64,000 nucleotides of DNA from Candidatus Bathyarchaeota archaeon (GTDB lineage Archaea > Thermoproteota > Bathyarchaeia > Bathyarchaeales > Bathycorpusculaceae), in the NCBI GenBank assembly GCA_963828195.1, contig CAWHDT010000005.1, forward strand, positions 288,001 through 352,000, read 5' to 3'. Made by a program: the position numbers and the translations under genes. The notes under the pieces are model-generated. The model was not told the DNA's origin. It searched no databases and saw only the letters and a program-made list of their open reading frames with translations. Below, in pieces: positions 2,247 through 32,640 of the stretch. Position 1 is the first letter of the stretch. Each line of letters opens with the position of its first letter.

Positions 2247-2349
2247 TTGCGCCTTCTTTGAAGGATGCCGCTCCGCTATTCACTTGTTAAGAATGAAGCA
2301 AATAGTAGGGGAGGCTGAGGGCTTTTCGCTTGTGCCAGGCACCTTTTTG

Positions 2350-2610
2350 CTGCTTGATTTTTGACACAATTTTCATTTTTTGATAGAACAACAACACCCG
2401 AAAAACAACTGTTGTTCTTCTATTGAATCCAGATTTAAGGCAGCCATCTAAAAAATAAAATTAAAAGAAGAAGCTGGTGAAAACAATTTTTCTTCTTCTT
2501 CTTTGGTCTGTTTCTTTTTGTAGCTGTTTTTTTGTGCAAATAGCAGGTAGGGCTATAGGTAGGCGGCGTCTAATTAGGGCTTGTTTTAAGGTGATTTTTT
2601 GGTTTAAGGC
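2350..2610 (+). repeat. Dispersed intergenic repeat, copy 1 (two fixed-spacer inverted repeats plus conserved tail)
   Basis: AGAACAACA-N16-TGTTGTTCT, AGAAGAAG-N18-CTTCTTCT, then GTGCAAATAGCAGGTAGGGCTATAGGTAG...AGGGCTTGTTT; homologous to 20648-20880 and 32408-32640. Confidence 0.9.
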
Positions 2611-2638
2611 TTAAAATAGTTTATTTGCCAAAATAGGT

Positions 2639-20558: not shown

Positions 20559-20647
20559 GCCATTTTGTGTTGGTTTTTTGACAAATACTGTGAAGGTCTA
20601 TGGGCAGCGGGTTTCTGAGCGGGCTTGCTTTGGGTTGGCTTTTTGCG

Positions 20648-20880
20648 GCTGAATTTTGCTGTAAATTTTAATTTTGAAAGAACAACAACACTTTGGAAAC
20701 AACTGTTGTTCTTCTGGGCAATATTTATTTTTAAAAGAAGAAGAAGCTGGTGAAAACAATTTTTCTTCTTCTTCTGCCTGGCATATTTGTGGCAGTTTTT
20801 GGCACAAATAGTAGGCAGGTCTATATGTAGACGCAGTTTGGGTCAGGGCTTGTTTCATGTCGGTTTTATGGTTTAGACCA
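20648..20880 (+). repeat. Dispersed intergenic repeat, copy 2
   Basis: Same two inverted repeats with 16- and 18-nt spacers; diverged tail CAAATAGTAGGCAGGTCTATATGTAG...CAGGGCTTGTTT. Confidence 0.9.
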
Positions 20881-21230
20881 TAAATTAAGCTTAAACCTAA
20901 CTTGTTTCCCACTGTAAAAACGAGGAAAACGCGTAAGAAACAGGTATAAACCTATTCATACCTGACTGAATGGCATCCGTCAAATGCGACAGCTCACCCA
21001 ATGCAGGGCTTGTCTTGGGTTGCTTTTTGATTTAGCGTTTGAAACAAGGTTAACTTATTTTGGAGAAAAAAAGGAAACTTGGCAAATCAACCCAATGCGC
21101 CTAATAGCCGCATCTACAAGATCCAAATAGAGACAAGCTCCAGCACAAATATTCAAGCCGCCACCGCTAAAGTTTAAAGGCTAAACCCACATTATTCTAT
21201 GAACCCGCAAAAAACCAAGCCAAAATTCAA

Positions 21231-21308
21231 GGGGCTGTCGGCTAGCTTGGTCTAGGCTTGTAGCCTCGGGCGTTATAGACGAGAGTTCAAATCTCTCCAG
21301 CCCCACCA
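21231..21308 (+). tRNA. tRNA-Pro(CGG)
   Basis: GGGGCTG/CAGCCCC acceptor, anticodon loop CT-CGG-GC, T arm GAGAG-TTCAAAT-CTCTC, encoded CCA. Confidence 0.92.
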
Positions 21309-32282: not shown

Positions 32283-32407
32283 GCTGTTTTCCTTGCCGAT
32301 TGACTGGGCGGTTGCTTAAGTTGCATTGACATCAACAATATTATGGATTTCTCCCTTTAATAGCTTCGACGATAGGTTTGAGAAAGCGCCGCAAGCCATA
32401 TTCGTCG

Positions 32408-32640
32408 TTTGATTTTTGTTATTAATTTTAAATTTTGAAAGAACAACAACACTTGGGGAACAACTGTTGTTCTTCTTGGCAATATTTATTTAAAAGAAGA
32501 AGCCTAGTGAAACCGTTTTTCTTCTTCTTTGGTCCTGTTTCTTTTTGAAGTTAAATTTTTGTGCAAATAGCAGGTAGGGCTATAGGTAGCGGCGTCTTAT
32601 CAGGGCTTGTTTTAAGCTGATTTTTTTGGTTAGGGTTTTT
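32408..32640 (+). repeat. Dispersed intergenic repeat, copy 3
   Basis: Same two inverted repeats (16- and 18-nt spacers); tail nearly identical to copy 1. Confidence 0.9.

Follow-up and report, generated by a model that had tools for sequence, protein, structure and literature searches.

In a 64,000-nucleotide stretch of the Candidatus Bathyarchaeota archaeon assembly GCA_963828195.1 (contig CAWHDT010000005.1, positions 288,001 to 352,000; hereafter the window), a non-coding element occurs three times, and judged by its sequence it belongs to a new family of archaeal mosaic hairpin repeats. Sequence also ties this family to a hairpin that covaries with the encoded protein, within a cluster of viral packaging genes. 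Each copy carries two dyads of fixed spacing, referred to here as the hairpins H1 and H2. A first-pass annotation of the window had already noticed the dyads; what it could not see is that both correspond to the two most frequent types of hairpin carried by a small-terminase-like gene in head-tailed viruses and proviruses of Bathyarchaeia. Bacteria are well known for dispersed palindromic repeats; in archaea this family is undescribed as far as we found: our literature search returned no description of such repeats for Bathyarchaeia and no papers on Bathyarchaeia together with miniature inverted-repeat transposable elements (MITEs), and the word "hairpin" is absent from the main text of the Bathyarchaeia virus paper.

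The window (G000:C5:288001-352000) is part of a 2.83-Mb genome, G000, which comprises 9 contigs and is 96% complete. All three copies were found on the + strand where the first-pass annotation had placed them, at ~2344-2618, ~20640-20897 and ~32400-32640, and their alignment spans 334 columns with a mean column identity of 76%. Dyad 1, AGAACAACA-N16-TGTTGTTCT, lies at 2385-2418, 20679-20712 and 32440-32473, dyad 2, AAGAAGAAG-N18-CTTCTTCTT, at 2465-2500, 20738-20773 and 32494-32529, and in every copy the dyads are followed by a tail that reads CAAATAG..AGG..CTATA.GTAG..GGGCTTGTTT. As the annotation had also described, the gap between the dyads is variable, with a longer linker in copy 1, and the contexts differ, copy 1 standing between convergent genes, copy 2 upstream of a tRNA gene and copy 3 between divergent genes. 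The suspicion that further copies exist throughout the genome was borne out. A BLAST search of G000 gave 45 matches, and nhmmer gave 97 with a profile of the three copies and 111 with a profile of 41 copies, of which 41 matches of at least 150 bits are full composites. Scanning the + strand for the hairpins themselves, we counted 64 H1 and 76 H2 in 84 loci, 52 of which hold both hairpins, 24 only H2 and 8 only H1. The spacer lengths, described as invariant on the basis of three copies, do not vary freely in this larger sample, with 16 nt in 117 of 128 H1 regular-expression matches (both strands were scanned, so each palindrome is counted twice) and 18 nt in 60 of 66 H2. Perfect hairpins with a stem of at least 9 and a loop of 6-30 number 471 in G000 against 316 in a Markov-shuffled genome; the excess consists essentially of AAG and AAC arms, almost always with the purine arm first, and a backwards control pattern had 0 matches in all 101 genomes searched.

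Rather than the single unit that had been described, the element is a mosaic of modules, arranged in the order leader (TTTTTGTGGCTG..), H1 (AAC/GTT), linker (in at least two alternative forms), H2 (AAG/CTT) and tail, the last consisting of a small hairpin, TTTGTG..CRCAAA, followed by AAATAGTAGGTAGGTCTATAGGTAGG, GGGCTTGTTT and T-runs. The modules are also found singly and in the order H2-linker-H1 (C1:72329, C2:60836 and C3:194441). What is kept among the copies is above all the stems: the mean pairwise identity is 0.94-1.00 for the arms, 0.59-0.63 for the loops, 0.51-0.61 for the tail and 0.34-0.41 for the flanks, and in all copies the arms begin with (A)AGAAC or AAGAAG and end with GTTCT(T) or CTTCTT. 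Outside the stems the copies diverge by a median of 0.35 and a minimum of 0.11, and the variation of one segment is unlinked to that of another (Mantel r ~0), neighbouring tail segments excepted. When 40 copies were folded together with RNAalifold, the H1 and H2 stems proved invariant, so that the genome itself offers no covariation, and some covariation was seen only in the small tail hairpin.

A likely origin of the two hairpins emerges outside this genome. A longer form of H1, in which two 12-nt arms flank a 13-nt loop, was detected in no fewer than 120 metagenome contigs, and in the 80 loci listed its settings are another composite of ~170 nt, arrays with AAG, AGT and A-rich arms and, in 9 cases, an in-frame position in a conserved open reading frame (ORF) of ~150 codons (..IRQKLIKLDLLKEQQQQKNLCCCSSKLELP..). 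The next ORF, which overlaps this gene, encodes a large terminase (terL; Terminase_6N, E = 7.5e-14 and 8.5e-15; phrog_2, E = 5.5e-38), and in one congener (G090) a tail protein is encoded upstream. Directly upstream of terL is the usual position of the small-terminase gene, terS, and we refer to the ~150-residue product as a putative small terminase. It has 128 homologues, the named ones all from Bathyarchaeota or Bathyarchaeia metagenome-assembled genomes (MAGs); the gene is present in 64 of 101 genus genomes, with up to 24 matches per genome, many of them partial or with stop codons, and in 19 viral contigs of IMG/VR. Among 30 genus loci chosen by protein homology alone, a terL-like gene adjoins in 24, and 27 have, at the same codons, a perfect hairpin whose stem is 7 bp or longer and in most cases 9-16 bp. 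In 18 of the IMG/VR contigs, sampled for ~10 kb on each side of the gene, the hairpin is found once and within this gene in 17; the 202.8 kb contain just 4 further hairpins with 9 bp or more. The viral arms are of the types AAC/GTT, AAG/CTT, AGT/ACT or AGT/GTA, AAGAAGACAA, AAGAAAAAA, GTAGTAGTGC, TGATGATGACC and others, and the same types make up the arms of the chromosomal arrays. At least eight complementary versions of the stem exist across the viral genes and other genomes, which indicates that pairing matters, be it at the RNA or at the DNA level. With the viral form, H1 of G000 has in common TTGAAAGAACAACAACA, the 13-nt loop, often ending in CAAC, and the 3' arm, its dimensions being 12-13-9 nt against 12-13-12 in the virus; the arms of H2 equal the viral AAG type. 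Sequence comparison thus shows the two dyads as chromosomal copies of the two commonest versions of the hairpin at the putative terS position.

In the viral family the hairpin changes together with the protein that contains it. An AlphaFold model of the ~150-residue protein (predicted local distance difference test score, pLDDT, 75.5) begins with a three-helix domain and ends in long helices; a linker between them is disordered exactly where the hairpin is encoded (residues 55-65). We read the hairpin type from the peptide in 103 full-length homologues and compared it with the sequence of helix 3. The AAC hairpin (peptide QQQ..CCC) accompanies the helix-3 motif xRQK in 43 proteins and, in one further protein classed as "other", LRQK; the AAG hairpin (EEE..SSS) accompanies xYQK in 32 of 32; and the GTA hairpin (VV..TTT) accompanies xYKK in 14, RxKIxR in 8, "other" sequences in 2 and xRQK in 1. 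When helix 3 and the linker are left out of the tree, 20 changes of hairpin class and 21 of helix class are counted on it, and 22 of the two labels combined, compared with 47.8 for shuffled labels, and there are protein pairs 96% identical elsewhere that differ in both hairpin and helix. At one locus (L293, G023:C15:8700-10100) three partial cassettes, of types GTA, AAG and AAC, stand in tandem, with hairpins at 456-492, 679-717 and 784-833; they encode ..IYKKIEQLGLEVVDEE.., ..IYQKLLDMGLLKEEED.. or ..ILQKLINLDLLREQQQ.. in different frames and are followed by a single C-terminal domain, and the locus looks like either a stock of alternative specificity cassettes or a recombination scar.

With 2.3 kb around copy 1 as the query, the full composite was not found in 60 congeners, and the modules occur separately: G004, G016, G047 and G062 have the tail, and G022, G010 and others have H1-like hairpins. 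Exact H1-type hairpins number 52 in G000 and at most 14 in each of 100 congeners, and 43 of the 101 genomes have at least one. The H1 pattern in its G000 form had 0 matches in the viral contig collection and H1 together with its linker 0 matches in the metagenome contigs, and a scan of genome contigs gave matches in 2 other Candidatus Bathyarchaeota MAGs. The loops of H1 are alike within a species and their consensus is species-specific, which means that the copies either evolve in concert or spread within lineages. A comparison of orthologous sites, which the first-pass annotation had proposed as a search for empty sites and target duplications, succeeded in its first part: the site of copy 2 is empty in G004, G019 and G047, where ~35 nt separate the stop codon from the tRNA promoter, while the second part, examined over 41 copies, revealed no duplication (see below). 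In G016 the same site holds an uninterrupted tail, and in G000 this older tail is split by leader, H1, H2 and tail together with 134 nt, with a ~25-nt duplication at the junctions. At the site of copy 1, H1 or H2 is present in 0 of 11 relatives, a full tail module in G047 and G062 and a tail-like variant in G016, and synteny with the relatives ends at copies 1 and 3. Of eight hairpin loci in relatives, two (L033 in G022 and L034 in G010) have a G000 orthologue that also adjoins a composite, the loop orientation being flipped and the synteny broken, which is only suggestive of positional conservation between species.

Along the chromosome the hairpins avoid genes: only 6 of the 140 lie inside ORFs of at least 150 codons, which make up 74% of the genome, and the 134 outside them show the distribution expected of REP-type sequences. 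Convergent intergenic regions hold more copies than expected (18 against 8.8) and divergent ones fewer (6 against 8.9; p=0.003), and in tandem contexts 12 copies are co-oriented and 11 opposite. A strand or replichore bias, suggested earlier as a possible property, was not detected (27 on the + and 22 on the - strand; Fisher p=0.16 against local GC skew), which fits with arms that read alike on both strands. The copies are not accompanied by any recurrent gene, since the 338 flanking genes form clusters of 5 at most, and no orphan arms form long-range inverted repeats around a gene. We considered the tail as a promoter and rejected it, the distance from tail to gene ranging from 30 to 911 nt for co-oriented downstream genes; a loose scan for the TTTTTGTGGCTG motif gave 888 matches and was uninformative. 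A coding role of the chromosomal copies was likewise rejected, given linker lengths that are not multiples of three and an in-frame stop in copy 1; one frame is open through H1 in the copies inspected by eye. The earlier judgement that the element is neither an ordinary promoter nor an ordinary terminator stands.

As an interpretation toward which we lean, tentatively and aware that it may well turn out otherwise, we propose that the copies on the chromosome mimic a pac site, the packaging signal of a virus. The hairpin, or palindrome, of the virus would be the pac recognition site, read by helix 3, and the chromosomal copies would imitate it in its two most frequent viral types. They would then be bound by the terminases of both types, which would begin headful packaging of host DNA, which would drain the packaging machinery (the copies acting as decoys), or spread the neighbouring host DNA by transduction in the manner of a drive like that of DNA uptake sequences, or both. 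Ongoing recognition would hold arms and spacing fixed and let loops, linkers and tails drift, and viruses would escape by exchanging the helix-plus-hairpin cassette; that new copies arise through recombination at the TTTTTG-rich starts shared by the modules is a guess. Such mimicry would explain the combination of invariant arms and free loops, the indifference to orientation and the exclusion from genes, and also why two types occur together and why the amplification is specific to a lineage. A pac site within the packaging gene itself has a precedent in P22, whose pac site lies inside its TerS gene (PMC9611059). A more far-reaching version, in which decoy packaging sites sabotage virion production and spread host DNA while viruses answer by swapping cassettes, in an arms race over packaging specificity, is conceivable and to our minds rather doubtful; in it that race would have left its footprints in the ~20 independent co-switches and in the arrays of tandem cassettes.

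A number of observations weigh against pac-site mimicry. The pac role of the viral hairpin is something that we infer, and the pac site of P22 is an asymmetric 22-mer, not a hairpin (PMC9611059). The terS assignment itself comes from gene order, size and architecture: the ~150-residue protein had no match in Pfam, PHROGs or PADLOC, and Foldseek gave no match at E<=0.001, the best being at E 0.24, with weak Myb/SANT similarities and the small terminase 4xvn in 21st place at E 0.95, while a sequence profile against the PDB returned only Myb, at E 0.07-0.8. Helix 3 lies only ~10 codons from the hairpin, so that their switching together could reflect linkage in a recombination tract and not function. 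G000 contains no cognate terS-like gene (0 matches; the best tblastn hit, at E 0.046, is on a copy of the repeat), and its own distant terL homologue (G000:C6:21796-23647; 31% identity to the protein of locus L135), which is probably a remnant of another provirus, is preceded by a 176-residue ORF with a Myb-like motif and without a hairpin. None of the 14 CRISPR spacers of G000 matches the viral or metagenome loci examined. The 3' arm of every H1 in G000 is one GTT shorter than in the viral, long form. The leader and tail have no counterpart in the viral loci examined, with 0 tail-type matches among 77, and mimicry leaves the composite unexplained. The spacing of the copies along the contigs is random-like (coefficient of variation 0.94 against 0.98 +/- 0.11). 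Finally, congeners rich in H1 mostly also have terS-like genes, so that the hairpins could derive from decayed or duplicated proviral genes, an origin not distinguishable here from selection.

Alternatively, the element may be selfish DNA, a non-autonomous palindromic repeat like those of the REP/BIME, BOX or MITE type, which some enzyme copies in trans and which has no host function, whose arms are kept only for mobilisation and whose viral gene copy is an in-frame insertion now tolerated as a linker; this deserves serious attention, even if we consider it unlikely. Many of its expected features are present, namely the modular mosaic with modules found singly and in other orders, the amplification of exact H1 in one lineage, the species-specific loop consensus, the orthologous sites that are empty in relatives (that of copy 2 in three of them) or lack H1 and H2 (that of copy 1 in all 11), the position of copies 1 and 3 at synteny breaks, the excess in convergent intergenic regions and the occurrence of H1 in a quite different composite in other metagenome contigs. 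Several negative results stand against it. The longest word shared by the two flanks averages 4.80 over 41 copies against 4.83 +/- 0.21 when permuted, giving no target-site duplication (fuzzy ends could hide short ones), and there are no terminal inverted repeats, the ends being unpaired in the consensus fold of 40 copies and in the fold of copy 2, which contain local hairpins only. Near-identical copies are absent, hence there was no recent burst. PF01797, the Y1/RAYT transposase family, has 0 matches in the 96% complete genome, the control search being positive in 6 of 14 genomes, no TnpB or IS110 gene was found in G000, and a GTAG or CGTC tetranucleotide tag is not found at the arm ends. 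There are 4 DDE_Tnp_1 and 7 rve transposase genes in G000; the ends of the two insertion sequence families with identical copies (GGATTCGCTTA.. and GGTTCTGTAAAGT..), which the end comparison covered, are unrelated to the element, and four element motifs had 0 occurrences in a 2434-bp rve element. Neighbouring genes offer no candidate, as none recurs. Moreover, the viral hairpin is near-universal, sits at one fixed position, has at least eight compensatory stems and tracks the helix, unlike a passive insertion.

The hairpins could also act in RNA, as 3'-end, terminator, stabiliser or processing structures, with a host factor reading an AGAA..TTCT-based stem that viruses use in the terS mRNA too, for example to set the ratio of terS to terL, a possibility that we regard as decidedly improbable. 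It would fit the intergenic location, the enrichment at convergent gene ends and the several copies that abut stop codons, the T-runs that are abundant on the + strand of the window copies, and the fold of the composite, which is a succession of local hairpins (-76.9 kcal/mol and z -4.6 for the whole of copy 2; -10.7 to -13.7 kcal/mol for single hairpins). The purine arm comes first on both strands, so either transcript would form the same stem, in agreement with the lack of orientation bias, and the many stem versions on a common AGAA..TTCT base suggest recognition of structure over sequence. Within G000, however, the H1 and H2 stems contain no G-U pairs or compensatory changes, so that covariation within the genome lends no support to the multicopy structured RNA considered in the first-pass annotation, invariant stems speaking neither for nor against it; no Rfam family was matched, the window giving 2 tRNAs only and ten copies searched at E<=5 only sub-threshold chance rows; the loops show no antisense signal to nearby genes (8.17 against 8.27 in controls); and arms identical in sequence across species, together with the pairing of stem type and DNA-binding-like helix, point to sequence-specific recognition by a viral protein. 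If instead the hairpins were by-products, or a reservoir, of cassette exchange, they would be fragments of terS, helix 3 plus hairpin, that recombination has scattered and that now decay, possibly to be reused by viruses. The three tandem partial cassettes before one C-terminal domain at L293, the many partial or interrupted terS-like matches within single genomes and the pairing of H1 with H2 at similar spacing in 33 metagenome matches agree with this, as does a weak resemblance of the 5' flank of H1 in G000 to the coding sequence of helix 3 (..ATTAATTT..TTGAAAG). We nevertheless give it little credence: decay should affect stems and loops equally, whereas the former are 94-100% and the latter ~60% identical, there are 84 loci in G000 yet no cognate gene, the leader and tail of the composite are not viral (no tail-type match in the viral loci examined), and the flank similarity is weak and AT-rich. 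Sites for a host DNA-binding protein, such as a nucleoid protein involved in chromosome organisation, with an incidental viral link, would account for the fixed arm spacing and the genome-wide intergenic distribution. They would not be expected to lack replichore or skew polarity and regular spacing, to be patchy in the genus (58 of 101 genomes have no exact H1) or to come in several complementary stem versions, which indicate intrastrand pairing or type-specific readers and not one host protein; we judge this explanation highly improbable. The Xer-like element that had been suggested found no counterpart, nothing Xer-like being seen, and the remark that the element was not recognised as a described family agrees with the Rfam and insertion sequence comparisons above.

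The modules of the window copies, all on the + strand, can be delimited as follows. Copy 1 is preceded by a degenerate tail-like remnant at 2298..2332, read from the sequence, which lies just past the stop codon of the upstream gene. Its leader (2344..2384) starts with TTTTTG.TG..G, as the tail module does, and ends with TTTTGAT before H1 (2385..2418), whose arms at 2385-2393 and 2410-2418 enclose the 16-nt spacer; the RNA fold of 2381-2425 has -11.3 kcal/mol and z -5.1. The linker (2419..2464) is the long variant (..GAATCCAGATTTAAGGCAGCCATCTAAAAAAT..), shared by 3 of the 40 aligned composites, namely copy 1, L065 and L081. H2 (2465..2503) has arms at 2465-2473 and 2492-2500, an 18-nt spacer and a CTT run that continues to 2503, and the tail (2504..2618) contains the small hairpin TTTGT..ACAAA, followed by AAATAGCAGGTAGGGCTATAGGTAGG, GGGCTTGTTT and T-runs. 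Copy 2 splits an older tail module, the 5' part of which (20562..20639) abuts the stop codon of the upstream gene. It consists of a leader (20640..20678), H1 (20679..20712; arms 20679-20687 and 20704-20712, 16-nt spacer), a linker (GGGCAATATTTATTTTT; 20713..20734), H2 (20735..20775; (AAG)4 at 20735-20746, 18-nt spacer at 20747-20764, CTT arm at 20765-20775) and its own tail (20776..20897). The 134 nt that follow this tail are unique in the genome, and the 3' part of the older tail with an extension (21004..21165) then reaches the tRNA promoter and is collinear with the element in G016; the duplicated ~25 nt (GGGCTTG..TTGGGTTG.CTTTTTG) are shared between the region of this 3' part and the end of the 5' part. 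Copy 3 comprises a leader (32400..32439), H1 (32440..32473; arms 32440-32448 and 32465-32473, 16-nt spacer), a linker (32474..32493), H2 (32494..32529; arms 32494-32502 and 32521-32529, 18-nt spacer) and a tail (32530..32640). The tRNA gene downstream of copy 2 lies at 21231-21305, and its promoter region (..CCG.TAAAGTTTAAAG..), which is kept in G004, G016, G019 and G047, marks the right edge of the inserted block. Elsewhere in the window, the ~105 nt at 1318-1423, between divergent genes and ahead of the one at 1461-2246, have several matches of 71-82% identity in many genus genomes; they are single-copy in G000, and 1250-1500 has no Rfam match.

Several further features of the family and its surroundings were recorded. 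Two composites on contig C5 of G000, at 863086-863350 (-) and 867077-867356 (+), are inverted, 3.7 kb apart and identical in the loops of H1 and H2; with 13% non-stem divergence they rank second in similarity among the pairs of copies in the genome, and they may be an inverted duplication. Six composites (C4:32979-33324, C3:326331-326646, C7:277568-277901, C6:35104-35414, C1:317794-318091 and C5:162821-163145) share an additional module (..CCAAACATGATTCAACATAG..TGCAACGA..GCGCACTTTGCA..), which replaces or follows the usual end of the tail and is a further repeat family. After some tails (G000:C1:328745-329039 and C4:78781-79076) there is a purine-rich extension with repeated AAAGATAC/GGAAAGAT words, and the same extension is found in loci of G016, G047 and G062 (L085-L087). 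The ~170-nt metagenome composite (..GTTTGTCTGCT-H1-ACCAACCTTCCCATGCACAGAACGCAGCGTTTAGAGCCTAAAATTGCAAAAT..CCCCGAGAATAACAC) surrounds H1 in L132, L137, L143, L154, L196 and others, with varied flanks, and in six such loci Rfam matched just a tRNA. Two resident elements of G000 are apparently active insertion sequences: a DDE_Tnp_1 element of 1875 bp in three copies (G000:C1:5027-5683, C1:442387-443043 and C5:742841-743497), ~99.8% identical between those compared, and the rve element of 2434 bp in two identical copies (C1:297710 and C6:19464), with AGAGAGAG on each flank. The CRISPR array of G000 (C3:403196-404184) has a 30-nt repeat in 15 copies and 14 spacers, of which 3 equals 5 and 4 equals 6. 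In G090 (L272, G090:C1:806000-825999) the tail protein, a 141-residue ORF, the terS-like gene and terL abut an ABC/AAA-type ATPase and a type I restriction-modification operon, which may represent a truncated provirus in a defence island.

These findings provide a likely origin and a likely reader for a host repeat, in the form of a hairpin of a virus family that is exchanged together with a putative DNA-recognition helix. DNA recognition by small terminases is still called unclear (PMC9611059), and the natural pairs of helix and site, of at least three types, would amount to ready-made specificity swaps. Should the host copies be recognised, they would represent packaging-site mimicry on a genome-wide scale, extending the nine P22 sites of Salmonella (PMC11260489) to ~84 loci, and should the decoy or arms-race version hold, archaea would harbour a previously unseen form of conflict between virus and host, along with a drive resembling that of DNA uptake sequences. 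At a practical level, the repeats break assemblies, many metagenome contigs ending at them, and read-through of the hairpin peptide in three frames leads to spurious protein matches.

The family resembles several known systems in part. The BOX elements of Streptococcus pneumoniae and repeats of the Correia and ERIC type have a modular A-B-C build, ~100 copies per genome and no transposase of their own. The repeats described here likewise vary in the number and order of modules, reach ~100 copies per genome and lack their own transposase, but they have no terminal inverted repeats or target duplications, and their copies are old and, save for the stems, diverged. In Neisseria and Haemophilus, DNA that carries the recognised uptake sequences (DUS/USS) is transferred more often, so that the sequence accumulates, often between genes and as inverted pairs. 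If the pac interpretation is right, the likeness is that a genome gathers copies of the sequence by which a DNA-transfer machine recognises its substrate; the machine would, however, be a viral terminase and not a competence receptor, the copies are 10 to 20 times fewer, and a hairpin of 34-40 bp is too long to originate by point mutation. Rickettsia palindromic elements are palindromic repeats that also occur in frame inside protein-coding genes, as the hairpin does here, with the difference that the genic copy always occupies the same place within a single family of viral genes, is near-universal there and covaries with the protein, and that the chromosomal copies avoid genes. REP palindromes carry a GTAG or CGTC tag at one end and have a cognate Y1 (RAYT) gene. 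With the REP and BIME sequences of enterobacteria and pseudomonads (see PMC3733652 and PMC12306157), our family shares short intergenic palindromes, a mosaic clustering in which linkers alternate between forms, an excess at gene 3' ends and stems that are kept better than loops; it differs in having no GTAG/CGTC tag (the arms start with AGAA) and no RAYT/Y1 transposase, in modules that are co-oriented and not alternating, in long loops of 13-18 nt and in triplet-repeat arms held in common with a viral gene. The closest functional parallel under the packaging interpretation is with the nine P22 pac-like sites of Salmonella, which direct packaging and transduction from the chromosome and have been proposed to be selected for that reason (PMC11260489). 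In both cases a sequence kept in a viral small-terminase gene, putative in ours, recurs in the host chromosome, but here there are ~140 hairpins in 84 loci against nine sites, two viral types occur together, as perfect hairpins rather than an asymmetric 22-mer and inside a mosaic repeat, and the host is an archaeon without the cognate virus, in which packaging is a proposal.

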